From assembly GCA_025058595.1 (NCBI GenBank), contig JANXEK010000002.1, positions 17,248 through 81,247 of the forward strand: 64,000 nt of DNA. Reading direction: 5' to 3'. Below the pieces are notes generated by a model. That model had not been told where the DNA came from. It searched no databases and worked only from the letters and a program-made list of their open reading frames with translations. Made by a program: the position numbers and the translations under genes. Source of the stretch: Candidatus Bathyarchaeota archaeon. GTDB lineage: Archaea > Thermoproteota > CALKCG01 > B24 > DRYS01. Shown here one piece after another: positions 3,454 to 63,363 of this stretch (positions are counted from its first letter, which is position 1; the number at the start of each line of letters is the position of its first letter).

Positions 3454-4626
3454 TTATCTGTGATATATACCATATCTTTTCGCTTCCTTTATCATAGCTA
3501 GAAAATTCGCAGGTTTCACGAAGCTATGTACACTATTACTCGAACCGACTATCAGCCCTCCCCCATGAGCTGCTACATCTATAAGTCTCCTAACCTCTCT
3601 TCTAACATCATCCTCGAACCCGTAGACTAGCGTATACGCACAATCTATGTTCCCAAAGAAGCAGATCCTATCCCCATAGGCTTCCTTAAGCTTAGCTATA
3701 TCCATACCTGCTCTAGGTTCTATAGCTAGATAGCCATCTATACCCGTCCCTACTATGAAATCATCTATGATCGGATTTATGTTGCCATCGGTATGCTTCA
3801 GGAATGGTACACCCCTCCTATGGCATGCATCGACGTGAGCTTTTATAGAAGGCATTATAAACTCCCTAAAGTGTTTAGGGTTCATGTAGGGTCCATGTCT
3901 GTATGCTATATCTGCCCCACCGCTTATAGCTTCGACGCCGCTATCGACCATAGCATCTATATAGGCTATGGCTCTTCTTGTCGTATAGTTTATCAGCTTC
4001 TTGACAGAATACGGATCGGTATATAAGGCTTTAAGAAATATGTGAAGCCATGAACCGCCGACCGGGAAGGATCCATCGATATCGCCCATAACGAGCATCC
4101 TACCCCCCACTGTTTTAACCGTATATTCTACAAGCTCAAGCTCCTCGGCCTCCACTTCTATAGGTTCCTCGCATAGCTTATCTACATAGTCTTCGAAAGC
4201 GTGAAGTCCACCCTTAGCTATACTGGAGTCGATCTGAGAGATAGAATCATACTCAGGGTCAAACCTGTATCGGAACCAATGCCCTTCAGGATCTTCTACA
4301 ATCCATTCGTACGGAGCTATAGGCTTAGGCTTAACAGGATTCCTACCCCACACAGGTCTAACCGTTATAATGTCGAGATCTAGCTTCGAGTATAGTTCGA
4401 CTCTATCTATCTTCATCCTACCGACAAGCTCATTCCTACGTCCTTCGTATATCATACGGTAGCATAGATCCATAAACCTACCTCCATAACCTACCATAAG
4501 CTCCCTACCTATCAGAGCTGAAGCTACAGGAGAATTAATATCATACTCCGATACAGCGACCCTATCAGCTTCCTCAAGGTATATCATGTTTAGAGCTCTA
4601 TCCCTAGGATTCAACCTCCCGTACAC
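3454..4626 (-). CDS. uroporphyrinogen decarboxylase (URO-D) superfamily protein, MtaA/CmuA-like
   Basis: 390 aa. The C-terminal half (FLKHTDGNINPIIDDFI..GIDGYLAIEP..GMDIAKLKEAYGDRICFFGNID) matches the URO-D/methyltransferase barrel. Confidence 0.6.
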   Translation of the reverse strand: MYGRLNPRDRALNMIYLEEADRVAVSEYDINSPVASALIGRELMVGYGGRFMDLCYRMIYEGRRNELVGRMKIDRVELYSKLDLDIITVRPVWGRNPVKPKPIAPYEWIVEDPEGHWFRYRFDPEYDSISQIDSSIAKGGLHAFEDYVDKLCEEPIEVEAEELELVEYTVKTVGGRMLVMGDIDGSFPVGGSWLHIFLKALYTDPYSVKKLINYTTRRAIAYIDAMVDSGVEAISGGADIAYRHGPYMNPKHFREFIMPSIKAHVDACHRRGVPFLKHTDGNINPIIDDFIVGTGIDGYLAIEPRAGMDIAKLKEAYGDRICFFGNIDCAYTLVYGFEDDVRREVRRLIDVAAHGGGLIVGSSNSVHSFVKPANFLAMIKEAKRYGIYHR

Positions 4627-6873: not shown

Positions 6874-7995
6874 CTACGGTATCCTATGGAATGTATCTAT
6901 CCAAGCCCTTTTAAGTCTAATGGCGTCATCAAAGCTCTCTACATCTATCGAGAATATAATTCCCGTAGGGTTGTCACCTAATGCTTCAGCGAATCTAGCT
7001 ACGAAACTGTGTACATCAACTCCAGATGGCATCCTATCCTTCCATACGAGGCATATACGCTTCTCGAAGGTTATTCTCCGGATATCCTCGAATCTATAGA
7101 GTTCAGGATTACCTAGATGGATAGCTTTCACTCCAGGTGTATCTACGACTATACCCAGTATGTGGGATACCTTTCCGCATGAATGCCATAGACCACCGTC
7201 GAACGGAGAGAAGCATTGTATGTTGTAACCCCTACAGAATTCTATGTAATGACGCGGCGAAAGTAGGGCGGCTGAATCTTCACATAACCTTACGCCGCCT
7301 TTACACATCCATAAGCCTGACGGGCCGTCGGTTTTATCCCATCCATGAGCTCCAGATACGAGGGGCTCGCCTATAAGCTTCTTCTGGATAGTGGTGAATT
7401 CTATGTAGGCTTCGGTAACCTTCGATAATATCTCTTTAACTTCATCTGGCTGGAGGTATAGCGCTTGAAATATCTTCTCACCGACTATCTGATGGGCTAG
7501 GTTGAATGGGCCTTGAGTATCTGCTAGATAGACTCTTACCCCTGTATCTTCAAGCTTCTCTATGAAGAAGCGTTCCACTTCTAAAGTTTTCGCAGGTAAC
7601 CCTTTACCGAAGTCGGGGTCGCCTAAGAGTGAAGCATCTAGCTTACCATCTACGAATAAACGCTTGGCTTTAGCCCATGGCGTGTTATCCTCCATTATCA
7701 TAACTTCGCATCCGAATGCGTTAGGTATTATGCATACGCCGTAATCTGCTCTAACAGCTGGGACTGCGTCATCCCTAACCATTAGATGGGGGATGACGTT
7801 TGTTTCTATTTGCGTTACGAGCATCTTACCTAGATCTTCGAATACCTCTCTATAGCTATAGTTATGCTTTAGGTTAGGGAAGTTTATAGTGAGAGGTGGT
7901 TGATCTACCGATCTGAAGAGCCATGCATCGCTTTGACGCTTCATACCTTTACTTATCGTCTCCATATCTATAAGCCGTTTTACTTCAGCCACCAC
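6874..7995 (-). CDS. URO-D superfamily protein (divergent)
   Basis: 373 aa. QGPFNLAHQIVG, LQPDEVKEIL, CEDSAALLSPRHYIEF and WHSCGK follow URO-D/MtaA family order. Confidence 0.45.
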   Translation of the reverse strand: MVAEVKRLIDMETISKGMKRQSDAWLFRSVDQPPLTINFPNLKHNYSYREVFEDLGKMLVTQIETNVIPHLMVRDDAVPAVRADYGVCIIPNAFGCEVMIMEDNTPWAKAKRLFVDGKLDASLLGDPDFGKGLPAKTLEVERFFIEKLEDTGVRVYLADTQGPFNLAHQIVGEKIFQALYLQPDEVKEILSKVTEAYIEFTTIQKKLIGEPLVSGAHGWDKTDGPSGLWMCKGGVRLCEDSAALLSPRHYIEFCRGYNIQCFSPFDGGLWHSCGKVSHILGIVVDTPGVKAIHLGNPELYRFEDIRRITFEKRICLVWKDRMPSGVDVHSFVARFAEALGDNPTGIIFSIDVESFDDAIRLKRAWIDTFHRIP

Positions 7996-12512: not shown

Positions 12513-13619
12513 TTACACAATCCTACATCCATCTACCTTCACATCTATCGCTATCTGCCATCTATAAGGTGCGACCTCCTTCACGATCCTACTAGATAAT
12601 ACCTTATCGAAGATCCTACCAGCTTTAACTATACCTTCGATAACCTTTGCTTCAGCCTTCTCTAACGCATATGATCCATCCTCGAATCCATAGTAATGGA
12701 TTATACCGTCTGATGGCTTAAGAGCTATACATGCTACATCGATATACTCTATAGCCTTTTCAGGTAGATTCATTATCACCCTATCTGCTACGTTACGTAA
12801 CCTAGTTTGTATGATTTCTCTAGCATCACCTAGAATCGGTATGACTTTATCCTCCACCCTATTAATACGTAAATTCTTCTCTAGGTATCCTATAGCATCC
12901 GGGTTTATATCGATAGCATAAACCCTTACGTTACGGTGGAGCTTAGCTATCAGTATCGAAAACGGACCTACACCTGCGAACATATCTACGATAGTCTCAC
13001 CTTCGACTACTTGAGATGCGATTCTGTAATGCTCGTATGATAGCCTAGGCGAGAAGTATACCTTCCTAGGGTCTAGAAGGTAGCTACAACCATATTCTCT
13101 ATGAACGGTCTCGGTATTCTCGGATCCTGCTACGACTTCGTAGCTTCTAACACGGTAGACACCGGTGACGGCGCTAGATTTAGCTAGGACCGATCTCACA
13201 CGTTTGAACACGTTCATGACAGCTTCCCCTATAAGCGTCTTATAATCTTCAAGCTCCTCCGGTATCTCTAGGATCGCTATATCCCCTACGAAATCTATCG
13301 AACGTGGAAGGCAGGCGAGGAGGTGTGGTGGAAGCTTATCTTCCAAGATATCTAGAATACTTTTAGCAGGTTTCGCATACCTTTGGAAGCTGTGGATGCA
13401 TATCTCGAATTCAGATACCTCCTTCTCGATAACCTCTAGCTGCCACTTTGAGGGCTTCTCTTTGATAGGGATGAATAGATAGCGATCATTCCTCACTACC
13501 TTAAGGCTCCTATCTAGAAGATCGAGGTCATCCAGGATTCTAATCATCTTCTCACCTAAACTCTTCTCTATCCTAATAGAGTAGGATTCGACCGTAGATC
13601 GGGGGAGATCGCTAGACAT
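12513..13619 (-). CDS. trm5: tRNA (guanine37-N1)-methyltransferase Trm5 / Met-10+ family
   Basis: 368 aa. SAM motif IVDMFAGVGPFSI, VYAIDINPDA and the NLP catalytic motif (VIMNLPEKA). Confidence 0.8.
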   Translation of the reverse strand: MSSDLPRSTVESYSIRIEKSLGEKMIRILDDLDLLDRSLKVVRNDRYLFIPIKEKPSKWQLEVIEKEVSEFEICIHSFQRYAKPAKSILDILEDKLPPHLLACLPRSIDFVGDIAILEIPEELEDYKTLIGEAVMNVFKRVRSVLAKSSAVTGVYRVRSYEVVAGSENTETVHREYGCSYLLDPRKVYFSPRLSYEHYRIASQVVEGETIVDMFAGVGPFSILIAKLHRNVRVYAIDINPDAIGYLEKNLRINRVEDKVIPILGDAREIIQTRLRNVADRVIMNLPEKAIEYIDVACIALKPSDGIIHYYGFEDGSYALEKAEAKVIEGIVKAGRIFDKVLSSRIVKEVAPYRWQIAIDVKVDGCRIV

Positions 13620-22902: not shown

Positions 22903-23788
22903 GCTTAGATACTACGTAGCCTACTATCTCTTCAGCTATATTTTTATCTGTAGTCGATTGTAACCCCCTCCAATCAGGCTGGCTATTAACTTCGTTCACG
23001 AAGAAGCGTCCATCCCTAGTAACCATTATATCTACTCCCGCAATCTCGCATCCAAGTATAGATGCAGCCTTCACGGCTGCATCCTCTAGTTCTGAGTTCA
23101 ACTTGACAGATCTGGTCCATGCACCTTGAGCTACGTTCGTCTTCCAGTATCCAGATATCCTTCTAGCAGATGCTACAACCCTATCGCCTACCACGAACGC
23201 TCTTATATCAGAGAATCCGTGCGGTATATAGCTCTGCAGATATATCACTGAACGTTGACTAGATAGAAGCCTGAAGAGCCTGATAGCTACATCGCTAACT
23301 TCAACCCTGGCTACACCTACACCTCTAGATCCGAATAACGGTTTTAACACCGTATTCCCGCCGAGCATCCTATATCCTCTCAAAGCTTCACCGTAACCCT
23401 CGGCTACTATCGTAGCAGGTGTAGGTATATCATTCCTTTCTAAGAGTAGTAACGAGTAGTATTTATCGACAGCTTTCTCTATAGCTTCACCTCGATTTAC
23501 AACCTTAACCCCTAAATCCTCTATAGCTTTGAGTAGATCCACCCTGAGTATTATCTGCTCGAGGGAGCCTGAACCTATAGGTCTCACGATAACTGCGGAT
23601 ACCTCATCCTCTATAGGTTTTCCATGAAGCGTTACACCGAGCCTTAACCCTATAGTTCCCATGAGATCCTTGAAGCCGAAGCATACTGGGGTCACGTTAA
23701 ATTTAACCATAGCCTGTTTAAGCTGAAGGTTGCACCAAGCTTGAGGATTCCTAGTAAGTATTCCTATCTTCATAGCTAAATCTAACAT
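22892..23788 (-). CDS. RimK-family ATP-grasp alpha-L-glutamate/aminoadipate ligase
   Basis: 298 aa. ATP-grasp motifs VLKPLFGSRGVGV and GVDIM....FFVNEVNSQPDW. Confidence 0.8.
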   Translation of the reverse strand: MLDLAMKIGILTRNPQAWCNLQLKQAMVKFNVTPVCFGFKDLMGTIGLRLGVTLHGKPIEDEVSAVIVRPIGSGSLEQIILRVDLLKAIEDLGVKVVNRGEAIEKAVDKYYSLLLLERNDIPTPATIVAEGYGEALRGYRMLGGNTVLKPLFGSRGVGVARVEVSDVAIRLFRLLSSQRSVIYLQSYIPHGFSDIRAFVVGDRVVASARRISGYWKTNVAQGAWTRSVKLNSELEDAAVKAASILGCEIAGVDIMVTRDGRFFVNEVNSQPDWRGLQSTTDKNIAEEIVGYVVSKLKG

Positions 23789-32727: not shown

Positions 32728-34479
32728 CTAAGTCTCGGATAGCATACCTTTAACCTTCTCTTCGAAATATTTCAATGCAGCTTTAAGATAGGTTTCATCC
32801 ATCGATCTACCGCAACATTCGGTTTCTAAGATCCTCCTAGGTATCCTAAGGGAATCTATCCTGAAGCCTAGATCTAGTTTAACCTTATACTTCTCTCTAT
32901 ATATCTTAAACCCTAGATCTATCAGAGTATCTCTAGTATGATTTATACCTAGAGCTTTCAATGCTTCGGCAACCCTATCAGCGATATATATACCTCTAGC
33001 GAAGAAGCATACGACTAAACTTGAGAGGATCTGCCTCCAGGCTTCCTCCTCCACCAACCTGTCTATAAGATGCTCAGGGGGAGGATACTCTTTACCTAGA
33101 AGCTTCTCATCTAAGCTATATCCTGCAGAATCGAGGTGGCTATGCCTCGCACCTGTGAGATATGTTAGGTATGCTCCATACCCAGTCGAGTAGCCAGGCA
33201 TCTCATTCCCACCGAAAGCTAGAGCGTAATCCTCCCCGCCGTAGATCCTGGACGCATGATCTACACCTAGACTTAGATCTCTATAGAACTGGTTAACCTG
33301 GTCTACGATATATCGTACAGCCTGTAGATAGCCTTCGACGTAGCCCCATCTAAGTTCCACAAGCGTATCGTTAACGGTTATCAAGCCTTTCTCGTATGCT
33401 TCTGTAGCCCACGCTAAAGCTACACCAGTACTCATAGCATCTAGACCGTAGATTTCGACTGAATCTAAGAGTCTAAGCATGCCATCAGTATCGCTTATAC
33501 CGAGCATAGATCCTAAGGCATAGATCGGCTCATAATCGTATGAAACATACGTAGTTTTGTAGAAGTATGGCTCCCCTTCATATGGCTCCCTTAGAGCTGC
33601 CAGATGGATGCAAGCAATCGGGCAGTGGCTACATGCAACTCTACGTCCTAACCTATTCTCAGCTAGATACTCCCCGCTTATAAGCTCGGCTTTATCTAAG
33701 CTCGAATACCTGAGATTCATAGTCGGCAGACCTTTAATGGCGTTGAGCATATTCACGTTCATCGATGTACCTATATCATGGTATTTCTTCATCAACTCAC
33801 TCTTAACGGCGAGATCATATATCTCATCGTATACCTTACGATAGAGCCTAGGTTCCTTTACAGGTATACTCTCCCTACCATAGATAACTAGAGCTTTAAG
33901 CTTCTTAGAACCGAAAACAGCACCTAACCCCAACCTACCGAAATGCCTGTAAGTCTCTGTTACGACGCATGCATACCTTACAAGGTTTTCCCCGGCTCTA
34001 CCTATACGCATTATAGTCCTTAACCCTCTTCCATACTCCCTCTCCCTAAGTATACGGCCTACAGTCACGGTACTACGTATACCCCACAATGTAGAAGCAT
34101 CCCTAAACCTGACAGTCCCATCGCCTATCGTCAAGTATACAGGCATATCGCTCGCACCTTTGATAACTATCGCGCCATATCCAGCCATACGTATCGCTAC
34201 GGCGCTTCGACCACCAGCATGACTTTCACCTAGATTCCCTGTTAATGGTGATTTGAATATAGCTACGGTTTTAGACGCCATCGGATATAAACATGTTAGA
34301 GGCCCGACGGCGAATACTACTACGTTATCAGGGCTCAACGGATCTGCATCAAGCTTGATCTCTTCTCTGAAAAGCTGTATAGCTACACCGATACCTCCAA
34401 GCCATCTATCGAATAGATCCTGTCTATCTTCAACCCAGAAATCTCTTTTAGATAGGTCTACGTAGAGTACATTCCACAT
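32728..34479 (-). CDS. aldehyde:ferredoxin oxidoreductase family tungstoenzyme (WOR5-like size)
   Basis: 583 aa. N-terminal LYVDLS...WLGGIG, AOR domains 1-3, cluster ligands CSHCPIAC. Confidence 0.9.
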   Translation of the reverse strand: MWNVLYVDLSKRDFWVEDRQDLFDRWLGGIGVAIQLFREEIKLDADPLSPDNVVVFAVGPLTCLYPMASKTVAIFKSPLTGNLGESHAGGRSAVAIRMAGYGAIVIKGASDMPVYLTIGDGTVRFRDASTLWGIRSTVTVGRILREREYGRGLRTIMRIGRAGENLVRYACVVTETYRHFGRLGLGAVFGSKKLKALVIYGRESIPVKEPRLYRKVYDEIYDLAVKSELMKKYHDIGTSMNVNMLNAIKGLPTMNLRYSSLDKAELISGEYLAENRLGRRVACSHCPIACIHLAALREPYEGEPYFYKTTYVSYDYEPIYALGSMLGISDTDGMLRLLDSVEIYGLDAMSTGVALAWATEAYEKGLITVNDTLVELRWGYVEGYLQAVRYIVDQVNQFYRDLSLGVDHASRIYGGEDYALAFGGNEMPGYSTGYGAYLTYLTGARHSHLDSAGYSLDEKLLGKEYPPPEHLIDRLVEEEAWRQILSSLVVCFFARGIYIADRVAEALKALGINHTRDTLIDLGFKIYREKYKVKLDLGFRIDSLRIPRRILETECCGRSMDETYLKAALKYFEEKVKGMLSET

Positions 34480-38286: not shown

Positions 38287-40332
38287 CTACATAGTTTTCT
38301 TCAAGAATCCAGGTCTATGCTCGTATAAAGTTCCCTCTTTAAGCATCTGATTTATAAGCTTAACAGACTCTGTTTTATCCATACCATACTCCTCCTCCAA
38401 TATCTTTACCAGATCATCTTTACCGGCCATACCGTTCTCCTTCTCAAGCTTAGAGACTACGGAGAGTATCAGTTGAAGCTTATCCCTCATACTCTTAGGC
38501 TTCCCAGTCATTATGATATCTATATCTATCTTACCAGAAGCTATATCGAACCCAACCTGCTCTAAAGTCGCTCCCATGAGCCTTATAGCGGCTTCAGTAT
38601 CTTCCACTGTTACCGTATCCCTTAAAGCAGCCCTAGCCCTAGCTTCAGCTAACCTTATTATGGATTCAAGCTGCCTAACCGTTATAGCTATAGGCGAACC
38701 TGAACTCTCAGATAAAGCCCTCATTTTCAGGTAGAAATCCCTTATTCTCTCCATAGCCTCCTTCGAAAGTTTAGGGTTGATCCTCTTAGCATAAGCTATA
38801 TACTTCCTGAGGAATTCGGATTCTATCGGTGGGGCTTCAGGAAGCTCTCGGGTACTATGAAGCATCAATACATGTTCGGCGATACGTGCATCTAGAGATT
38901 TATCAGGCTTATCCCTCAATACGAATATCAGATCAAACCTGGATAGTATCGAAACCGGTAGGTTTATATTGTCTGCCACCGTTCTGAGCGGGTCATATCT
39001 ACCGAAGGCTGGGTTAGCCGCCGCTATTATAGAAGCCCGTGCGTTAAGCGTAGCGACTATACCACCTTTAGCGATAGATACAGTTTGCTGTTCCATAGCT
39101 TCATGCATAGCAACCCTATCCTCAGGTCTCATTTTATCTATCTCATCTATAGCGCATACACCTCTATCGGAGAGTACGAGAGCTCCTGCTTCGAGAGCCA
39201 TAGCTCCACCCTTATCCCTAACTACAGCGGCTGTCAATCCTGCAGCTGTAGTTCCCCTCCCATGTGTGTATAACCCTCTAGGAGCAACTCTATGAACATA
39301 TTGTAGTAACTGACTCTTACCTGTACCTGGATCGCCTATGATGAGTATATTTATATCTCCTCTGATCTGGTTCCCTCCAACCGTTATGGGAACACCGCCG
39401 AATAGCATGTATACTATAGCCTCTTTAATATCATCATATCCATAGATTGCCGGGGCTATCGATGCTTTAAGCTTCTCGTAAATACCGGGATCAGATGCTA
39501 TCTTCCTAATCCTCTCTTCTTCCTCTACCGTGATCTCTATCTGCTCAGGCTCCTTACCTTTAACCTCTATATTATTCGTTTCGACCGTTAAATTGAATAT
39601 ACGAAGCCCACCCCTACCGGGCAGTATCTGAGGCTTAGCTTTAACTATCCCTGTGACTACGACGTTATCCCCAGGTCTAGCGGTATCCACTAGATCATCT
39701 GTAACTACGATATCTATCCATCTAGGTATCTGCCCCGGAGGTAGATCCTCGGGTCTTTCCTGGATTCTAAGCTCCTGATAGTTTATAAACTCAGATCTAT
39801 CTTCAAGTAGCTTCCAACTACTCTTCTTACAGTTTGGACATATAGTCGGTGTAGCTATAGCCGTACTCTCCTCTTGAGGTATAGATTCGGATATATGGCC
39901 GCAGACTTTACAAGCGAATGTAGCTTTAATCAGGAGCGGATGTACAGCAGTCGCTCGGACTATAATCCCTTCAAACTGTACTAACTGTCCTAGATGATCT
40001 ACACAGATCTTCCTTAATGGGAACGTCTCTATCAGATCCTTAAACCTTACGTTAATCTTCCTAATCTTCTCAGCGTAATCCCTTGCTTCCACTTTAAGCT
40101 GATCGAAAGCAGCTTTCTCTAGCTCTGGTAAAACTCTACTTGGATATCTCTGAGCGTATATAGCTAACTCTTCATCATATATCCTCAGATCTATGAAGCT
40201 AACTTTAATGCTTTTCAAGCCTAGGGAGGCTATCTGGAGGAGCTGCTCACGGTACTTGAAAGATCCATCTTCAGATCTAAACGTTCTAAGGAAGCTCTGA
40301 AACTTATCGGCTATGTTGAACGTTATCTCCAT
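38287..40332 (-). CDS. mcm: minichromosome maintenance (MCM) replicative helicase
   Basis: 681 aa. Zn motif CKVCGH...CPNC, Walker A GDPGTGKSQ, Walker B IDEIDKM, arginine finger SRFDLIF. No intein. Confidence 0.95.
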   Translation of the reverse strand: MEITFNIADKFQSFLRTFRSEDGSFKYREQLLQIASLGLKSIKVSFIDLRIYDEELAIYAQRYPSRVLPELEKAAFDQLKVEARDYAEKIRKINVRFKDLIETFPLRKICVDHLGQLVQFEGIIVRATAVHPLLIKATFACKVCGHISESIPQEESTAIATPTICPNCKKSSWKLLEDRSEFINYQELRIQERPEDLPPGQIPRWIDIVVTDDLVDTARPGDNVVVTGIVKAKPQILPGRGGLRIFNLTVETNNIEVKGKEPEQIEITVEEEERIRKIASDPGIYEKLKASIAPAIYGYDDIKEAIVYMLFGGVPITVGGNQIRGDINILIIGDPGTGKSQLLQYVHRVAPRGLYTHGRGTTAAGLTAAVVRDKGGAMALEAGALVLSDRGVCAIDEIDKMRPEDRVAMHEAMEQQTVSIAKGGIVATLNARASIIAAANPAFGRYDPLRTVADNINLPVSILSRFDLIFVLRDKPDKSLDARIAEHVLMLHSTRELPEAPPIESEFLRKYIAYAKRINPKLSKEAMERIRDFYLKMRALSESSGSPIAITVRQLESIIRLAEARARAALRDTVTVEDTEAAIRLMGATLEQVGFDIASGKIDIDIIMTGKPKSMRDKLQLILSVVSKLEKENGMAGKDDLVKILEEEYGMDKTESVKLINQMLKEGTLYEHRPGFLKKTM

Positions 40333-48456: not shown

Positions 48457-49290
48457 ATGCCAGCAGAGAAAGATGTATTAGAGAGGTTAAAGGAGGCTCT
48501 TAGAGAAGATGATAATGTCTTATTGGCGTATCTATTCGGTTCGAGAGCTAGGGGGGAAGCCTCGCCGATAAGCGACTATGATGTAGCGGTACTCCTTAAA
48601 GATAGCGGGTTGCAGGCTTTCGCTGAAGTTTTATCGAGTATATCAAAGGCTCTAGGTGTATGCGAGGATAAGATAGATATTCTGGATTTAGCTAGAGCTC
48701 CACTACACCTGAAGGCTAAGGTTCTATCTGAGGGTATACTCATAATCGATAGAGGTTATGACGATACTCTAAGGCTTGAAGTAAATACTAGATATCCTGA
48801 GGTAGCCTACCAAACAAGAGTTCTACTTAGGAAATGGCTGGATAATCCAGTAGGTTTAGATCTGAGAGTTATCAAGGAGAGGATAGACTACCTCACGCAG
48901 CTCAACGATAATATCAAATCTTTCTTCGGAAAACATAAACCCGAGGATGTTTCAACGGATTTTGAAGCTTGGTTCGCCCTCAAAGGCATAGTTCAAGATT
49001 CAATACAAGCAATCATAGATATATGTGCACATATCTTCAGTTCTAAAAATCTCGGTGTAGCCGAATCCTACAGAGATTATGTGGAGAAGCTAAGCGAACA
49101 TGGCTATATAAGCGGCGAACTTGCTAAGGAGCTAAAGTTAGCGATAGCTATGAGGAATAGACTTATACACAGGTATTTAGCCGTAGAACCGATAGAACTC
49201 TGGGATTTTGCAGTCAGACTATCTATAGAGATAATACCGAGATTTAGGGATTGGATTCTGAAAAGTATGCATACCTGCGAAGGAAGATAA
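48457..49290 (+). CDS. fused minimal nucleotidyltransferase (MNT) - HEPN/DUF86 protein
   Basis: N-terminal pol-beta NTase motif FGSRARGEASPISDYDVAVL. C-terminal HEPN Rx4H motif AMRNRLIHRY. Confidence 0.8.
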   Translation: MPAEKDVLERLKEALREDDNVLLAYLFGSRARGEASPISDYDVAVLLKDSGLQAFAEVLSSISKALGVCEDKIDILDLARAPLHLKAKVLSEGILIIDRGYDDTLRLEVNTRYPEVAYQTRVLLRKWLDNPVGLDLRVIKERIDYLTQLNDNIKSFFGKHKPEDVSTDFEAWFALKGIVQDSIQAIIDICAHIFSSKNLGVAESYRDYVEKLSEHGYISGELAKELKLAIAMRNRLIHRYLAVEPIELWDFAVRLSIEIIPRFRDWILKSMHTCEGR

Positions 49291-49781: not shown

Positions 49782-50867
49782 TTGACGCCTAGGGATCGTT
49801 GCATATACAGTATTCTTTTGGAGGAGCCTGATAGGATACCTTTGATCCTTAGGATTAGACCTGAACCTTACGAAAGGTTGAAATCTCTATTAGGGTTTAA
49901 GGATTACCTGGATCTATATAGGTATCTTGGTGTCGATATCATTGGTACGCATATAGGTATTAGGGGTGGCTATCTTCCCAGTGGTGTAGAAGTTAAGGAG
50001 GGGCCTTACGGTCCTGCATATATCGTGGGTGAGTATATGGGTTTTGAGGTTAGGAGGGATATATGGGGTGTGGAGAGTATATGGCGTCCAGACAGGACTT
50101 ATACGTACACCTACTATAGGCATCCGCTACAGTTTATCAGGCTCGATGATTATATATGGCCTGAAGTGGATGTAGATAGATTCAATGAAGTTCTAAGGAT
50201 TCGTAGAGCCTACGAGGACTACTGTCTATACGGTTCTGTAGAGCATTTATGGGAGATCGCATGGCAGCTTATAGGGTTTAACGAAACTATGAAAATACTG
50301 TATACGAGGATCGACTATTTGAATAGAGTCTTGGACAATCTTCAGAGGATAAGGTTGGAGCAAGCTAAGCTTCTATGTGAAGCTGGTATCGACGTCGTAT
50401 ATGATGGGGATGACGTAGGTATGCAGAAGGGGATGATGATCTCACCCAGTATATGGAGGCATCTGTTGAAGCCTCGCTATAAGGAGTTGGTAGATCTATG
50501 CCATAGGTACGGAGTATTTTTCAATTTCCATAGCGATGGATGGATAGAGCCTATAATACCAGATCTAGTCGAGATAGGTGTAGATATACTCAACCCGATT
50601 CAACCCGAATGTATGGATCCCACCAAGATTAAACAGATCTACGGTGATAAACTTTGTTTCGATGGAACTATAGGCGTTCAAAGCATACTACCCTTCGGAA
50701 GAGTGGAGGATGTAGCAAAAGAGGTGATAGATAGGATAGCTGATCTAGGACCTACAGGTTTAATCCTAGGGCCAACCCATAGCATACAACCAGATACACC
50801 CATAGATAACGTATTGGTACTTTATAAAACCGCTTTGAAACATGGATGGAACACTAAGAAGCCGTAA
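49782..50867 (+). CDS. URO-D superfamily protein, MtaA/CmuA-like
   Basis: 361 aa. FNFHSDGWIEPIIPDLVEIGVDILNPIQPECMD..IYGDKLCFDGTIG. Confidence 0.65.
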   Translation: MTPRDRCIYSILLEEPDRIPLILRIRPEPYERLKSLLGFKDYLDLYRYLGVDIIGTHIGIRGGYLPSGVEVKEGPYGPAYIVGEYMGFEVRRDIWGVESIWRPDRTYTYTYYRHPLQFIRLDDYIWPEVDVDRFNEVLRIRRAYEDYCLYGSVEHLWEIAWQLIGFNETMKILYTRIDYLNRVLDNLQRIRLEQAKLLCEAGIDVVYDGDDVGMQKGMMISPSIWRHLLKPRYKELVDLCHRYGVFFNFHSDGWIEPIIPDLVEIGVDILNPIQPECMDPTKIKQIYGDKLCFDGTIGVQSILPFGRVEDVAKEVIDRIADLGPTGLILGPTHSIQPDTPIDNVLVLYKTALKHGWNTKKP

Positions 50868-50870
50868 CGG

Positions 50871-52760
50871 TCAGTTAAGTTTAATCCTATCAGCTAGAGG
50901 CGCAATATCCTCTAACCCAAGCATATGAAGCTTACTCTTCAGTTCCTCTATAGATCGGAGACTTCTACATTCGTAGAATAGGTTTAGCATCTCATGTATA
51001 TTATCGCATACCGATCCTTTAGCAGGTCCATCGGCGATAGGTTCTTCTACGAATCTCCTAGGGAGATTATCATCGCTATTGCTCATACCGAATAGGTAGT
51101 TTACCATCCTTTCTAGGTACCATACACTCTCTCCCGCATGTAGTATACCCATCTTATCGCATCCTATACCTGTAACGGCGGTCCAAACCTTAGCGATGTG
51201 ATCGAAATCGACTATACCGAATACACCAAACTTACATAGTATAGCTGAATCTAGGAAGCAGCATAAATTCTGGTGTATAATCACCGTATTGACATACTCC
51301 TCAACAGATGAAGGCGGCTTAGATATGCCATACTCAGGTAAAAGAACTCCTCTCTCCACTAACATAGCCATACCTTGGAGGTGGCATGCACCCCTATTAG
51401 ATGTAGCGTAAGCAAGCCCCATACTCTTATAGAGTCGAGGATTATGGTAGGGAACCTCAAGTCCCTTAACATGTAGTGCGAAACGATTCGTACTCCTACC
51501 GATAGCTTCGGAAGCCCTCTTAACACCATCAGAGAGTATGGTGCCGAAACCCTCTCTCAAACCTATCATCTCTATAAGCTTGGATAGAATCGATGCGTCA
51601 CCCCATCTGAGCTCTAAACCGCCAGTATCATCTTTAGTAATAAGCCCTTTCTCGTAGGCTTCCATAGCCCAAGCTATAACTTCACCAGTCGATATAGTAT
51701 CGATACCGAGCCTATCACAGAGTTCGTTGAGCTTTATAAGAACTATAGGATCAGAGTTGAGGACCATTGACCCTAGAGCGGCTACAGATTCGTACTCAGG
51801 ACCTTTACCTTTGTATCTACCGAACCCGGGATCATCGAACTCGATAACCCTCTCACACGCAATACTACAGAGGATCCCTGAGCCGCAGATCTTCCTTCCG
51901 CTCCCACTCCTATACTTCTCCATTATAGTTACGCCGCTTATCTTCCAAGCATCATCCCATGACCCCATAACCCAATGCTTTATCGGCAGATTTCCAGTTC
52001 GTATAAACATCGATACACCTCCGGCGGTCCCATATTCCATCATCGCTTCACCTCTGCTAGTCCTGGGAGCTTTAGAAAGCCAGTCAGAGTTCAGTTCCCT
52101 AAGGCATTCAGGATCATGTACATCGATAGGGTTGGATCCACGTACAGATATAGCTTTAAGCTTCTTCGAACCCATAACAGCGCCTAACCCTGTCCTACCT
52201 GCAATTCTCCTCTCAGAGCTTACTATACATGCTATCCTAGAGAGACGCTCACCAGCTAAACCTATAACGATCGATCTGAACCCATCACCTAGAAACCTAG
52301 CTATAGCCGATGACGCCTCCAATGAATCCATGCCCCAGAGATCCGATGCAGGCTTCACATCTACAGATCCATCGTCTATGATTATATGTACAGGTTTATC
52401 TGATGCCCCTACCACCACTATGCCATCGAAGCCAGCTTTCTTCAAAGATAAGCCGAACGAGCCTGCGAACGTAGATTTACCTAACCCATACGTTAGAGGC
52501 GATCTAGATACCAATACTGTTTTAGATCCGAAGGCAGATACCCCAGTAAGAGGTCCTGTCATAACTATCAGAGGGTTATCAGGCGATAGAGGATCCGGAA
52601 TACTAGACCTCTCTACGGCTGTGTAGTTTAGTAGAAACTTGGTAGCGTAACCTGCCCCCCCGATAAACCTCGATATCCAACTTTCATCCAGCTGCTCAAC
52701 CGAGGATCTACCCGAAGACAGATCAACCATTAAGATACGCCCGCATACGCCGCCAATCAT
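50871..52760 (-). CDS. aldehyde:ferredoxin oxidoreductase family tungstoenzyme (second paralogue)
   Basis: 629 aa. N-terminal ILMVDLSSG...FIGGAG and AOR domains. No adjacent ferredoxin subunit. Confidence 0.9.
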   Translation of the reverse strand: MIGGVCGRILMVDLSSGRSSVEQLDESWISRFIGGAGYATKFLLNYTAVERSSIPDPLSPDNPLIVMTGPLTGVSAFGSKTVLVSRSPLTYGLGKSTFAGSFGLSLKKAGFDGIVVVGASDKPVHIIIDDGSVDVKPASDLWGMDSLEASSAIARFLGDGFRSIVIGLAGERLSRIACIVSSERRIAGRTGLGAVMGSKKLKAISVRGSNPIDVHDPECLRELNSDWLSKAPRTSRGEAMMEYGTAGGVSMFIRTGNLPIKHWVMGSWDDAWKISGVTIMEKYRSGSGRKICGSGILCSIACERVIEFDDPGFGRYKGKGPEYESVAALGSMVLNSDPIVLIKLNELCDRLGIDTISTGEVIAWAMEAYEKGLITKDDTGGLELRWGDASILSKLIEMIGLREGFGTILSDGVKRASEAIGRSTNRFALHVKGLEVPYHNPRLYKSMGLAYATSNRGACHLQGMAMLVERGVLLPEYGISKPPSSVEEYVNTVIIHQNLCCFLDSAILCKFGVFGIVDFDHIAKVWTAVTGIGCDKMGILHAGESVWYLERMVNYLFGMSNSDDNLPRRFVEEPIADGPAKGSVCDNIHEMLNLFYECRSLRSIEELKSKLHMLGLEDIAPLADRIKLN

Positions 52761-58345: not shown

Positions 58346-58407
58346 AACATGAAAGCAGAGATGGGTTCGAGCCTTTATAACTTTTCCGCTGAATCTAGCT
58401 AGAGAGA

Positions 58408-58419
58408 AATATTTATAGA
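58408..58419 (+). promoter_or_regulatory. candidate TATA box (aaATATTTATAGaa) for the EF-2 transcript
   Basis: An AT-rich TTTATA element about 60 nt upstream of ATG 58476. GGAGGA at 58460-58465 is the SD box. Motif-based only. Confidence 0.3.
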
Positions 58420-58475
58420 AGGATGGCTGCTTCTATAATGCCTAAGAAAACCTAGATACGGAGGATAGATGCGAT

Positions 58476-60708
58476 ATGCCTGGGAGATACAAAAGCGTAG
58501 CGGAGGTATTAAGTATAGTTAAGGATAAGGGTCAGATCCGAAAGGGGTAGACGACCGTACAGCTACCTACCCCCGGAAGATATAGGTATAATAGCCCATG
58601 TAGATCATGGTAAAACTACTATGACTGATAGCCTTCTAGCAGCAGCCGGGCTTTTATCACCTACGGTTGCAGGGAAGGCTCTAGCCTTAGATTACATGGA
58701 GGAGGAGCAGAAGAGGCAGATGACTATTAAAGCAGCTAACATAAGCCTGTACTACGAGCTTGAAGGTAAGCCTTACATCATAAACCTGATAGATACACCC
58801 GGACATATCGACTTCACAGGGAAGGTTACGAGGAGCTTGAGAGCGATAGATGGAGCTATAGTAGTCGTAGATGCAGTTGAAGGCGTTATGACGCAGACTG
58901 AAACCGTTACTAGGCAGGCACTCGAAGAAAGGGTTAGACCTCTACTCTACATAAATAAGATCGATAGATTGATAAACGAGCTTAAGTTAGAGCCGCAAGC
59001 CGTACAGGAGACCTTGATGAATATAATAAAGGATTTCAATAACCTCATCGAGATTTACGCTGAACCTGAATTCAGATCTAGCTGGAAGGTTAACCCTGCT
59101 CTGAACCAAGTCGTCTTCGGCTCCGCTAGGGATAGATGGGGGTTCACGTTGGATATAGCTATGAAGAAGGGTGTTAAATTCTCAGATATAGTAGAGGCGT
59201 ATAGAAGAGGGAAGGCTGATGAGTTAGCTAGAGATCTACCGCTTCATGAAGCTATACTGGAGATGGTTATAAGGCATATCCCGAACCCTGTAGATGCGCA
59301 GAAGATAAGGATACCTAAGATATGGAGGGGTGATCTCGACAGCCCGGTAGGTAGAGCTATGCTTTCATGCGATGATGATGGACCTATCGTTATGTGCGTC
59401 TCCAATATAACGGTTGACCCACATGCAGGCGTCGTAGCTACTGGTAGATTGTTCTCTGGAACCCTCAACGAGGGAAGCGAGGTGTATCTAGTGGGGGTTA
59501 GGAGGAGGAGCCGTGTACAGCAGGTATGTATATACATGGGTCCTAGGAGGGAGATAGTGGGAAGCCTATCTGCAGGCAACATACCGGCGTTACTAGGTTT
59601 AGATGAGGCTAGGGCTGGCGAGACTATATCTAATACGCAGGACATAGTACCCTTCGAGACTGTAAGGTATGTAACCGAGCCTGTTATAACGGTCGCTATA
59701 GAGCCTAAGTATAGTAGAGATCTACCTAAACTTGTAGATATCCTCAGAAGACTCTCCATAGAGGATCCGAACCTTGTAACGCATATAGATCAGGAGAGCG
59801 GTGAATATTTGATATCAGGTTTAGGACAGGTGCATATAGAGATAGCGTTAACGCTTATACAGAAGACGGGTATAGAGATAATCGTATCGAAACCCACCAT
59901 AATCTATAGGGAGAATATCAGAAGTGCTGTAGGCTCTTTCATGGGTAAATCGCCTAATAAGCATAATAGGGTGTTCATAAGCGTAGAGCCGCTCGAACCT
60001 GAAGTTATAGAGAAGATCATGAGCGGAGAATTGCACGACGAACTCGATAGGAGGATTAAGACGAAAATTTTGAGGGATGCAGGATGGAATGCCGACGATG
60101 CTAGGAATATTCTATCTATAGATCAACATGGATGCGTACTGGTAGATAGGACTAAGGGGGTACAGTATCTGAACGAAGCTATAGACTATATAATCTCAGG
60201 CTTCATATCGGCTATGGATGATGGACCCCTCTGCAGAGAATATGTGAGAGGCGTCAAAGTTATACTGAATCACGCAGAACTACACTCAGATCCAGCTCAT
60301 AGAGGACCGGCGCAGATAATACCGGCTGTAAGACAGGCTATATACGCAGCTATGCTCTCAGCGAACCCGACTCTACTAGAACCCATTATGCGTATAGAGG
60401 TTAAGACACCTCTAGATATGGTCGGTAACGTGATCAGGATTATAACCGGTAGACGTGGACAGGTAGTAAGCTTATCGCAGGATGCCTATCTAGCTAGGAT
60501 TATCGGCGAAATACCAGCAGCTGAAACTTTCGATCTAGCAGAGATCATGAGATCTACGACTAGCGGTAAAGCATTCTGGTCTCTAAGCTTCTCTAGATGG
60601 GCTCCAGTACCGGCATCGATGCAGAAAGCTATAATAGCGGAGATAAGGACTAGGAAGGGATTACCCCCCGAGCCGCCTAGAGCTGAAGACTTCATAGTGA
60701 AAGAGTAG
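58476..60708 (+). CDS. fusA: translation elongation factor aEF-2, interrupted by a 37-nt predicted BHB intron (exon 1 58476-58542, exon 2 58580-60708; 731 aa after splicing)
   Basis: Exon 1 encodes MPGRYKSVAEVLSIVKDKGQIR. Exon 2 encodes (N)[23 protein letters not shown]... through the diphthamide region DPAHRGPAQ to the stop at 60708. The ORF track shows only the part from internal ATG 58621, which lacks the P-loop. Confidence 0.85.
58543..58579 (+). other. predicted bulge-helix-bulge (splicing-endonuclease type) intron within the aEF-2 coding region
   Basis: Sequence AGGGGTAGACGACCGTACAGCTACCTACCCCCGGAAG. It has a central 4-bp helix 58537-58540:58574-58577, 3-nt bulges 58541-58543 and 58578-58580 on opposite strands, and a 7-bp inner helix 58544-58550:58567-58573. 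It contains an in-frame TAG (58548-58550), and its length of 37 corrects the exon frame offset. Confidence 0.6.
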
Positions 60709-61191: not shown

Positions 61192-61686
61192 TTAAAGCTT
61201 ATATCCTATCCTTCTAAGAAGCGCCTTCCTAGACTCCCTATCCTGATCGGTTTCTATACCTTTAGATTTGAAGCCATCTACTACGCCTAGTATCGCTCTA
61301 CCCTGCTCGGTTTCGGCTACAACCACCTGCACAGGGTTAGCTGTAGCGCATAGGATCGAGCATACCTCTGGAACTCTTTTAAGCTCGTTCAGAACGTTTA
61401 TCGGGTAAGCCTTCCTGAGATACACTATGAAGCTATGACCTACACCAAGCTTCAAAGCTTGTTCAGCAACTTTACGTTTAAGATCTTCGCTATTACCTTC
61501 AACCCTCACTAAGCATGGACCTGAAGCTTCGCAGAAGCCTACCGCAAACTCTACATCTGGAGTCGAGGATTTTACTGCTTCATAGATATCCTCGACAGAT
61601 TTTATGAAATGTGTTATACCTATTATAACGTTGCAACCTTCAGGCACCTCTATACTGATAGCCTCTATCCTAACCGACATATACAT
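61192..61686 (-). CDS. adenosine-specific kinase family (PF04008-like) protein
   Basis: 164 aa. THFIKSVEDIYEAV, FCEASGPCLVR, GVGHSF, YPINVLNELKRVPEV, CATANPVQVVVAETEQGRAILGVVDG and RRIGYK match my recollection of this family. Confidence 0.7.
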   Translation of the reverse strand: MYMSVRIEAISIEVPEGCNVIIGITHFIKSVEDIYEAVKSSTPDVEFAVGFCEASGPCLVRVEGNSEDLKRKVAEQALKLGVGHSFIVYLRKAYPINVLNELKRVPEVCSILCATANPVQVVVAETEQGRAILGVVDGFKSKGIETDQDRESRKALLRRIGYKL

Positions 61687-62535: not shown

Positions 62536-63363
62536 TCAGATTTTCACACCCTCCTTCACTTTAGTATGCTCCCAAAAATGTATACTCCTATAGCTTAGAG
62601 GCGAGTATACTATGATGAGTATCGTAGCTATACCTATGAGGGAGAGGATATTTACGAAGACAGGATCTAGCTGTGGGGCTGAGAGTAGTAGGTGGATCGC
62701 TTCTACCATATGCGATTGAGGCATAGCGTAACAAATTATCCGCCCTATAAACGGCATGAATCTTCTAGGATAATACACACCTGTGAATATTAGCAGGATG
62801 GGACGGATTACGTTTGTAATCCTCCAGATACCTCCGCCTAAACCGTATATCACGCCTATTAGGAGTAGTACCACGGGTATCGTGAAGATGGAGGCCAACA
62901 CCGTCATAAGCAGTACTATCAATGCTTCTACAAACCCTGTATACCCGTGGTAATAGGTGAAAACTGGTATTATGCTTGTAACCCCACTTAGGAATACTAG
63001 TAGAAGCCTAGGTATCGGTATCGCTAGATAATGCTTCAACCTGGAGGTGGGGGAGGATACCACGTATGCCATAGTCCCTATGAATTCATCGAGGATAGGT
63101 CTCCAGAGAATATCATCCATTACGCTTAGCATAGACATCAAGATGAAACCGTTCGTAATTAGAAATATGATAGGCGTTAAACCTACTCTCTCTTCGAAAA
63201 AGCTTTGAGAACCCATGGATGAACCTATCAAGAGTACGAATATCATCAGTGTATACGGGTAGGCTAGGATTGCGAAGAATAGAGATCTTCTCCTCAGAAT
63301 ATCTGCATACATAAACTTAGTTTCCGCTCTGAGGAGATCTAGAAAACTCATAGAATCTAGCAA
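62536..63363 (-). CDS. ABC-2 type transporter permease
   Basis: 275 aa with six predicted TM segments. Coupled to the upstream ATPase by a 7-nt overlap. Confidence 0.75.
   Translation of the reverse strand: MLDSMSFLDLLRAETKFMYADILRRRSLFFAILAYPYTLMIFVLLIGSSMGSQSFFEERVGLTPIIFLITNGFILMSMLSVMDDILWRPILDEFIGTMAYVVSSPTSRLKHYLAIPIPRLLLVFLSGVTSIIPVFTYYHGYTGFVEALIVLLMTVLASIFTIPVVLLLIGVIYGLGGGIWRITNVIRPILLIFTGVYYPRRFMPFIGRIICYAMPQSHMVEAIHLLLSAPQLDPVFVNILSLIGIATILIIVYSPLSYRSIHFWEHTKVKEGVKI

Follow-up and report, generated by a model that had tools for sequence, protein, structure and literature searches.

How does a cell obtain a complete elongation factor from a gene whose two parts are written in different reading frames? 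The gene for archaeal elongation factor 2 (aEF-2) of a Bathyarchaeia archaeon raises this question. It lies in a 64,000-nt stretch of contig JANXEK010000002.1 (assembly GCA_025058595.1, positions 17,248 to 81,247 of the forward strand), which we call the window and whose own numbering is used below. The gene is split by a 37-nt bulge-helix-bulge (BHB) intron located directly before the GTP-binding loop (P-loop). The best explanation, and in our judgment a highly probable one, is that the endonuclease EndA cleaves the transcript at both bulges of a relaxed HBh′ intron and that RtcB ligates the exons.

The 695-aa open reading frame (ORF; 58621-60708) encodes a product in which the G domain and domains II-V were recognized by precomputed Pfam hits. 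Immediately upstream in the same frame, positions 58582-58620 encode IGIIAHVDHGKTT, but this frame lacks a start codon and meets a TAG upstream, at 58516-58518. The exon-1 frame, which encodes MPGRYKSVAEVLSIVKDKGQIR, continues with Lys-Gly-stop, the stop being TAG at 58548-58550. Deletion of 58543-58579 joined the 22-codon exon 1 to the 695-codon ORF in a 2196-nt coding sequence (CDS) for a 731-aa aEF-2 that carries the conserved ...IRNIGIIAHVDHGKTT motif. The spliced protein matched solved aEF-2 structures from end to end (8hl1, E=6e-273), and the alignment was unbroken across the junction (query 'qirnigiiahvdhgktt' versus 'rvrnigiiahvdhgktt'). The initial annotation of this DNA had placed the ATG, the GGAGGA, the frames, stops, helices, bulges and loop and the CDS length, all of which were correct on re-examination. 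It had also described the spliced CDS as collinear with crenarchaeal EF-2. The collinearity was borne out by the 8hl1 alignment through the junction and the identification as aEF-2 stands, but the host belongs to the Bathyarchaeia and is not a classical crenarchaeote.

The spliced protein served as the query against a collection of 5.8 billion proteins, and one genome per GTDB species was scanned. The eleven best protein matches (71-98% identity) were all exactly 695 aa long and started at the same methionine; the named ones among them were Bathyarchaeia. The genome scan recovered 80 EF-2 loci, nearly all labelled Bathyarchaeia. At 41 loci the P-loop frame was closed a few codons 5′ of IGII/MGII, and a conserved exon 1 (MPRYK[ST]T.EI.KII.NK[DE]QIR) was found 25-44 nt further 5′, usually in another frame. 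The remaining loci, among them those of more distant Bathyarchaeia (50-58% identity) and of a few nearer relatives, had an unbroken ...IRNIGII... sequence. An intron of 25-44 nt is present at the same site, at an identical codon position, in at least 41 species-level Bathyarchaeia genomes. Counts of 42 below refer to the window plus these 41 relatives, and pairing counts refer to 41 distinct sequences.

The closest named genomes to the window were hot-spring Bathyarchaeia metagenome-assembled genomes (MAGs). An independent assembly, GCA_033581435.1 (locus L129), differed from the window by 5 mismatches over 8088 nt and carried the 37-nt insert at the identical site with a single substitution, located in the loop. 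An assembly artefact, which the initial annotation had named as a way in which its reading could fail, is excluded by this second copy of the insert, and the comparison with orthologues that it had proposed showed the insertion recurring at the same site in 41 further species.

To define the introns, splice sites were set by the BHB rule only, with a cut after nucleotide 2 of each 3-nt bulge. The frame was restored in all 42 spliced CDSs, every one of which read [IV]RN[IM]GIIAH, and the products that were complete on their contigs were 728-731 aa long. The RN[IM]GIIAHxDHGKTT sequence was regained in silico in 42/42 spliced products, although the intron lengths span all three classes modulo 3.

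The pairing of the BHB structure was conserved among the relatives. In the anchor-based analysis, every sequence had the geometry of two bulges and a 4-bp helix, and the bulge lengths were fixed at 3 nt. The central helix was paired in 41/41 distinct sequences (UA 36/UG 5, CG 34/UA 7, CG 41 and GC 41 at the four positions), including compensatory CG to UA changes (34 versus 7 sequences). When the inner helix was anchored at the splice sites without any alignment, its first four pairs were formed in 34-41 of the 41 sequences by many pair types, and sliding the 3′ partner by one base reduced overall pairing from 91% to ~51%. In a MAFFT alignment, 91.4% of cells were paired, compared with 22-46% for partners slid by 1-3 columns, and 8 of the 13 pairs had changed on both sides. 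The number of double-change cells was 55, against 14.5±5.2 in shuffles, and the observed covariation score was reached by none of 500 shuffles. The inner helix (h′) had double, compensatory changes at 6 of its 7 pairs, with 85.7% of cells paired; its mismatches stem from 1-nt bulges in some lineages. RNAalifold, supplied with no structure, recovered the central helix, the 3-nt 5′ bulge and the inner helix.

The codon at the junction bears on the intron boundary. The 5′ bulge was AA/A in 35 sequences, UA/A in 3 and AA/U in 3 (the slash marks the predicted cut). The second base of the 3′ bulge, which precedes the 'AU' of the Asn codon, was U in 16, G in 10, A in 11 and C in 4 sequences, so that the codon read from unspliced DNA would be Tyr, Asp, Asn or His (16/10/11/4), whereas Asn was found in 37/37 intronless genes. 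Because this base varies freely while Asn is invariant, it behaves as part of the intron, and exon 1 must supply the A of the Asn codon. The neighbouring Arg codon, which contributes to the central helix, was CGA or CGU in 42/42 intron-bearing genes, compared with AGR (AGA/AGG) in 30/37 intronless ones; the genes with AGR include L009, an intronless gene nested within the intron clade.

Exon 1 itself behaved as coding sequence. Its peptide was conserved in the 42 loci, and entropy at the three codon positions was 0.57/0.38/1.24, indicating purifying selection in the exon-1 frame. A Shine-Dalgarno-like motif was present 5′ of exon 1 in 24/42 loci. An A/T box comparable to that of the window was seen by eye ~50-65 nt 5′ of exon 1 in most of the 42 loci, and a regular expression detected it in 14/42. 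Structure, conservation, covariation, frame restoration and constraint on exon sequence were thus observed directly, and on these comparisons we consider the evidence for an intron decisive. They support the core of the initial annotation, namely that a BHB intron interrupts this gene and would have to be removed to give aEF-2 with its P-loop. That the aEF-2 mRNA is spliced in vivo, and by EndA and RtcB, we infer from the same sequences.

The coordinates of the gene and of the BHB elements are collected in the table. The A/T-rich box upstream may serve as the promoter.

Table. Features of the split aEF-2 gene in the window (all on the forward strand)
Feature	Position	Strand	Remarks
TATA-like A/T-rich box (aaatatttataga)	58407..58419	+	~57-69 nt 5′ of the start codon; read from sequence
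Shine-Dalgarno-like GGAGGA	58460..58465	+	10 nt 5′ of ATG
Exon 1	58476..58542	+	ATG and 21 more codons (MPGRYKSVAEVLSIVKDKGQIR), then the first base (A) of the Asn codon
Outer-helix base, exon-1 side	58536..58536	+	A58536:U58581, the sole consistent outer pair
Central helix, 5′ strand UCCG	58537..58540	+	pairs with 58574-58577; last two bases of Ile and first two of Arg
5′ bulge AA/A, 3 nt	58541..58543	+	predicted cut after 58542
Intron, 37 nt	58543..58579	+	homologues at the same site; same 37 nt in an independent assembly
Inner helix h′, 5′ strand GGGGUAG	58544..58550	+	pairs with 58567-58573; holds the in-frame UAG 58548-58550
Intron loop, 16 nt	58551..58566	+	length and sequence unconserved among relatives
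Inner helix h′, 3′ strand CUACCCC	58567..58573	+	7 bp
Central helix, 3′ strand CGGA	58574..58577	+	inside the intron; 4 bp
3′ bulge AG/A, 3 nt	58578..58580	+	predicted cut after 58579
Exon 2	58580..60708	+	last two bases (AU) of the Asn codon, IGIIAHVDHGKTT, onward to the stop codon

We propose the following sequence of events. After transcription from a promoter 5′ of exon 1, the end of exon 1 (UCCG) would pair with the intronic CGGA to form the 4-bp central helix in the pre-mRNA, and the 7-bp helix internal to the intron would stack on it, leaving two 3-nt bulges on opposite strands. EndA, the tRNA-splicing endonuclease, would then cut between bulge nucleotides 2 and 3, that is, after 58542 and after 58579. 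These positions match the cut seen between bulge nucleotides 2 and 3 in an EndA-RNA crystal structure (PMC12397907), which we count in favour of the proposal. Joining by RtcB would create the Asn codon A/AU and a continuous mRNA of 731 codons for EF-2 with its P-loop. The predicted spliced RNA has ...CAGAUCCGAA joined to AUAUAGGUAUA... (in a longer form, ...AAGGGUCAGAUCCGAA joined to AUAUAGGUAUAAUAGCC...) and would be 37 nt shorter than the genome; a lineage-specific peptide crossing the junction, for example GQIRNIGIIAHVDHGK, is also predicted. The 37-nt intron would be freed, probably as a circle, whose predicted junction is ...CCCGGAAG joined to AGGGGUAG.... Unspliced mRNA would yield only a 24-aa peptide, ending at the conserved stop three codons into the intron.

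Several observations weigh against this proposal. The proposed BHB is recovered as the local minimum free energy (MFE) fold, but with an unremarkable energy (z=-0.35; 68 of 200 shuffles folded equally well). Among the unconstrained MFE folds of the 42 sequences, only 23 contained the complete central helix plus the beginning of the inner helix, scored as at least 3 of its first 4 pairs. The exon-side helix (h) of a strict hBHBh′ motif was not found, the outer helix being weak. Neither EndA nor RtcB, nor cbf5, was encoded in the window according to Pfam (56 of 57 ORFs); for the two enzymes this absence counts among the adverse points. Finally, protein and metagenome collections, which are essentially DNA-derived, yielded neither a spliced transcript nor a circular intron or a junction peptide. 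On the supporting side, one published study found EndA and RtcB in all the near-complete archaeal genomes that it covered, Bathyarchaeia included (PMC12918454).

The searches behind the last result were of three kinds. When a profile of 22 spliced N-termini was run against the 5.8 billion proteins, the top matches with an intact junction were from intronless sister lineages. Comparison of 240 retrieved proteins with the 42 spliced products gave matches of at least 90% identity that were all truncated at the N-terminus, none with an intact junction. A scan of JGI metagenome contigs for CARATCCGAAATATNGGNATHAT returned 47 matches, all of them bacterial EF-G or intronless archaeal EF-2. One protein, P0138 (L128 1501-1884), appeared to read through an intron without a stop, and was rejected as such: its contig is one A short in the GAAAG run of the 5′ splice site. 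That contig, L128, has a name in the style of long-read assemblers and contains further frameshifts downstream, and the apparent exception is most likely a homopolymer error.

Structure in a single sequence is weak evidence, because the fold energy is ordinary and loose BHB-like motifs are common by chance. A loose BHB scan gave ~750 motifs per strand in the window and in shuffled sequence alike. A strict scan required 4 Watson-Crick pairs in the central helix, bulges of 3 nt, 7 or more Watson-Crick pairs in the inner helix and a length of at most 60. It gave 4 places for the + strand and 2 for the − strand, a slight excess over the ~0.8 per strand of shuffles. What separates the aEF-2 motif from a random one is its placement, where excision would restore both the frame and the invariant Asn codon, together with its conservation and covariation. 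The other strict hairpins (40279-40330, 61561-61602 and 63289-63342 on the + strand; 23057-23082 and 12558-12608 on the − strand) lie in intact ORFs or antisense to them, and no reading frame is restored by any of these hairpins. When the BHB scan was combined with ORF logic in a search for further mRNA introns in the window, the output was dominated by chance matches.

The outer helix deserves a separate description. Its first pair was A:U in 36 of the 41 sequences, G:C in 4 and unpaired in 1, and the G:C variant couples an Ile to Val change in exon 1 with an AAU to AAC change in exon 2. The second position was mismatched in 38/41, in line with the caveat of the initial annotation that only A58536:U58581 forms in the window. 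In several mesophilic lineages an offset outer helix of 4-5 bp, ACCAG/UUGGU, can be formed. As the outer helix is consistent in its first pair only, the motif is, by its sequence, a relaxed HBh′ BHB. Relaxed HBh′ motifs are documented substrates of (αβ)2 and ε2 EndA (PMC6379350), and the class is also typical of the cbf5 intron (PMC6379350, PMC2738675).

We weighed three other accounts of how the two parts of the gene are, or are not, connected. Programmed translational bypassing of the kind described for phage T4 gene 60 would have the ribosome hop from near the Arg codon over the structured 25-44 nt and continue in the exon-2 frame, the RNA being left unspliced. The early stop codon after the putative take-off site, the short gap with its stable hairpin and the spliced RNA that is so far unseen would all fit such a hop, but bypassing cannot assemble a codon from bases that flank the gap on both sides. 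In the genome, the codon that precedes IGII specifies Tyr, Asp, His or Asn (16/10/4/11), although Asn is invariant in intronless EF-2. In addition, no CGA or other CGN landing codon matching the take-off codon occurs upstream of IGII in the exon-2 frame; the CGG at 58574-58576 is out of frame and leads to UAG at 58583-58585. The covarying geometry of 4 bp and two 3-nt bulges is specific to EndA substrates. We therefore consider bypassing very unlikely.

Excision by a machinery other than EndA and RtcB, such as another endonuclease with a ligase or a ribozyme activity, would agree with the lack of both enzymes among the scanned ORFs of the window and with the weak outer helix of a non-canonical motif. 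We give this account a similarly small chance, because the spacing is exactly that which EndA measures (two 3-nt bulges, 4 bp, cuts after bulge nucleotide 2) and the relaxed HBh′ form is among the documented substrates of (αβ)2 and ε2 EndA (PMC6379350). Moreover, 25-44 nt is far below the size of group I or group II introns, and no Rfam family matched. Self-splicing of those two types was rejected outright, since a ribozyme core takes hundreds of nucleotides and the Rfam search was empty at gathering thresholds. It is scarcely credible that the parts are not joined at all, the locus being a pseudogene, an insertion or artefact, or a source of truncated EF-2 starting at Met37 (58621), with an intact EF-2 encoded elsewhere. 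Gene callers and the NCBI annotation do give a 695-aa EF-2 for these lineages, EF-2 paralogues have been reported in some Bathyarchaeota (PMC6143161), and a second copy could lie elsewhere in the genome, of which the 64-kb window is our view. Against this, the insert occurs in two assemblies and 41 other species, and the ORF is intact across clades of just 60-67% protein identity. The P-loop codons 5′ of Met37 are perfectly conserved despite the lack of a start codon in their frame, and exon 1 is conserved as protein while its third positions vary. A translational GTPase without the G1 motif, as EF-2 from Met37 would be, could not bind GTP. Cleavage by EndA followed by ligation by RtcB therefore remains the account that we favour.

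The stop codon within the intron was also conserved. The exon-1 frame met a stop inside the intron in 42/42 loci, and in the window this UAG (58548-58550) lies inside the inner helix. The stop was the third codon after the Arg codon in 40/42, where it falls within the inner helix, and overall it was TAG in 34, TAA in 5 and TGA in 3, with the partner strand changing to match. A stop is also kept in the introns of 27, 30, 33 and 36 nt, lengths that are divisible by three. Although the count is inflated by shared ancestry, this looks like selection for termination of translation on unspliced mRNA rather than for a particular sequence.

The 'regulatory checkpoint' suggested by the initial annotation is speculation, and the conserved in-frame intronic stop is the only hint of selection beyond splicing. 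The intron would in that case be a control point at which EF-2 output is gated by EndA and RtcB in a manner like HAC1/XBP1, linking translation capacity either to the capacity for tRNA/rRNA processing or to the loading of ribosomes on the leader ORF. The position 67 nt into the CDS, the stop (TAG/TAA/TGA) at a fixed position and the retention in a deep clade would fit this idea, which we nevertheless regard as unlikely.

In a neighbour-joining tree of EF-2 proteins, the intron-bearing genes formed one large clade with two branches, one from hot springs, which includes the window, and one from soil, peat and sediment. The intronless L009 was nested within this clade, and the intronless L014 and L021 were placed near the base of the soil/peat/sediment branch. 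The intron was absent from Brockarchaeota-like sequences and from distant Bathyarchaeia. The simplest reading of this tree would be one ancient gain, in the ancestor of a large clade of Bathyarchaeia, and then a small number of losses. Separately, the intronless archaeal EF-2 genes of L121, L087, L094 and related loci have the codons CAR AUC CGA AAU AUN at the site. As they contain the exon half of the central helix, they could represent either the state before insertion or the footprint of a precise loss.

Canonical tRNA introns were sought in the fetched loci as an internal control. The sole long tRNA was the tRNA-Gly(CCC) of L017 (6463-6564), which was called at 102 nt with an intact anticodon stem-loop and has an insert of ~26 nt between the anticodon arm and the T arm; the insert is non-canonical and no BHB was called in it. 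It may be a non-canonical intron in a lineage that also has the EF-2 intron. L017 is also one of five loci (L016, L017, L028, L056 and L062) at which archaeal aEF-2 contigs lie inside MAGs labelled bacterial (Methylomirabilota, Acidiferrales, Acidoferrum, Planctomycetota and Patescibacteria); these contigs are probably mis-binned.

Public EF-2 calls for the intron-bearing lineages are wrong at the N-terminus (P0001-P0011, P0038, P0081, P0118 and others). They comprise proteins of 695 aa starting at the Met after the P-loop, proteins of 706 or 714 aa starting at MGII and, in one case, a protein of 753 aa with junk read-through. These errors matter in that aEF-2 is a standard phylogenomic marker. 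The same pattern, a cluster of homologues truncated at one shared residue, offers a route to more archaeal mRNA introns, and it is possible that these Bathyarchaeia carry further unrecognized ones.

The rest of the window contains ordinary archaeal chromosomal genes, including those for MCM, a Hel308-like helicase, XPF, archaeosine TGT, prefoldin beta and an ECF transporter. A single 277-aa ORF (48457-49290, + strand) fuses a Pol-beta/MNT nucleotidyltransferase domain to a HepT-like RNase domain; MNT nucleotidyltransferase and HepT are usually encoded by the separate genes of a toxin-antitoxin pair. Three URO-D/MtaA-like ORFs (3454-4626, 6874-7995 and 49782-50867) and two aldehyde:ferredoxin oxidoreductases (32728-34479 and 50871-52760) were also observed.

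The mRNA BHB introns named in the literature that we searched are those in the cbf5 coding sequence of Crenarchaeota and one in a Haloferax 5′UTR (PMC7714728, PMC2738675, PMC6379350, PMC12397907). The initial annotation took cbf5 to be essentially the sole precedent, and this literature bears it out, with the Haloferax 5′UTR intron as an addition (PMC7714728). No report of an EF-2 intron was found in this literature, the coverage of which was incomplete, so that an earlier description elsewhere is possible. A study of archaeal EF-2 evolution that included Bathyarchaeota mentions no EF-2 intron, and the word occurs there only in the title of a reference (PMC6143161). For more than 20 years, cbf5 has been the sole archaeal coding sequence named for BHB splicing in the literature searched; with EF-2, the number of archaeal protein-coding sequences known to depend on RNA splicing would rise to just two. 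The factor is essential and highly expressed, and the intron occurs in 41 or more species of an uncultured class that is abundant worldwide; such a case would mean that splicing of protein genes by the tRNA machinery is not a one-off. With its position 22 codons from the start and its internal stop, the EF-2 intron would also provide a handle on how splicing proceeds alongside coupled transcription and translation.

By sequence, we classify the EF-2 intron in the same mechanistic class as the known BHB introns, in a new gene and a new lineage and with unusually broad conservation. Among the nearest precedents is the cbf5 pre-mRNA intron of Aeropyrum and Sulfolobus (Watanabe 2002, Yoshinari 2006, Yokobori 2009; PMC2738675). 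Both introns are short, of the BHB type and within a coding sequence, often with a relaxed motif; both lead gene callers to misread the gene as split or frameshifted; and both show a gain followed by scattered loss (PMC2738675). Splicing of the cbf5 intron has been attributed to a broad-specificity hetero-oligomeric EndA. The host genes differ, cbf5 encoding a pseudouridine synthase and aEF-2 an abundant translational GTPase, so the present intron falls outside the cbf5 family, and the lineages are Desulfurococcales and Sulfolobales for the one and Bathyarchaeia for the other. Unlike the cbf5 intron, the EF-2 intron is located 67 nt into the CDS, immediately 5′ of the P-loop, and contains a strongly conserved in-frame stop, and its splicing is deduced from sequence.

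The archaeal tRNA and rRNA BHB introns (hBHBh′, hBH and HBh′) share with the EF-2 intron the 4-bp helix, the two 3-nt bulges and the cuts after nucleotide 2, and presumably the enzymes EndA and RtcB. The EF-2 intron is also within the size range of tRNA introns, 11-175 nt (PMC2738675). In contrast to those substrates, the EF-2 transcript is an mRNA and lacks the tRNA body or rRNA processing stem that could aid recognition, and its codons must supply one strand of the central helix and the whole outer helix; the restriction of the Arg codon to CGA/CGU would follow from this. The 5′UTR intron of Haloferax volcanii HVO_1309 (Schwarz et al. 2020, PMC7714728) resembles it as an EndA substrate in an mRNA, and removal of that intron is apparently needed for efficient expression (PMC7714728). 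It differs in that it sits in an untranslated leader, leaves the protein unchanged and is confined to a single species (PMC7714728).

Outside the archaea, the splicing of HAC1/XBP1 by IRE1 and RtcB offers a parallel: a small intron is removed from a cytoplasmic mRNA by a structure-recognizing protein endonuclease, its excision changes the frame so that only spliced mRNA encodes the functional protein, and a tRNA ligase (RtcB in metazoa) joins the exons. In that system, however, the endonuclease is a different one, the intron is bounded by twin stem-loops and splicing is a regulated stress switch, whereas regulation of the EF-2 intron is speculative. The bypass in phage T4 gene 60 likewise involves a short, structured and stop-containing gap in a coding sequence, but it acts at the ribosome with matched take-off and landing codons. 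The EF-2 junction codon, in contrast, would be built from both sides of the gap, which is feasible only by joining of the RNA.

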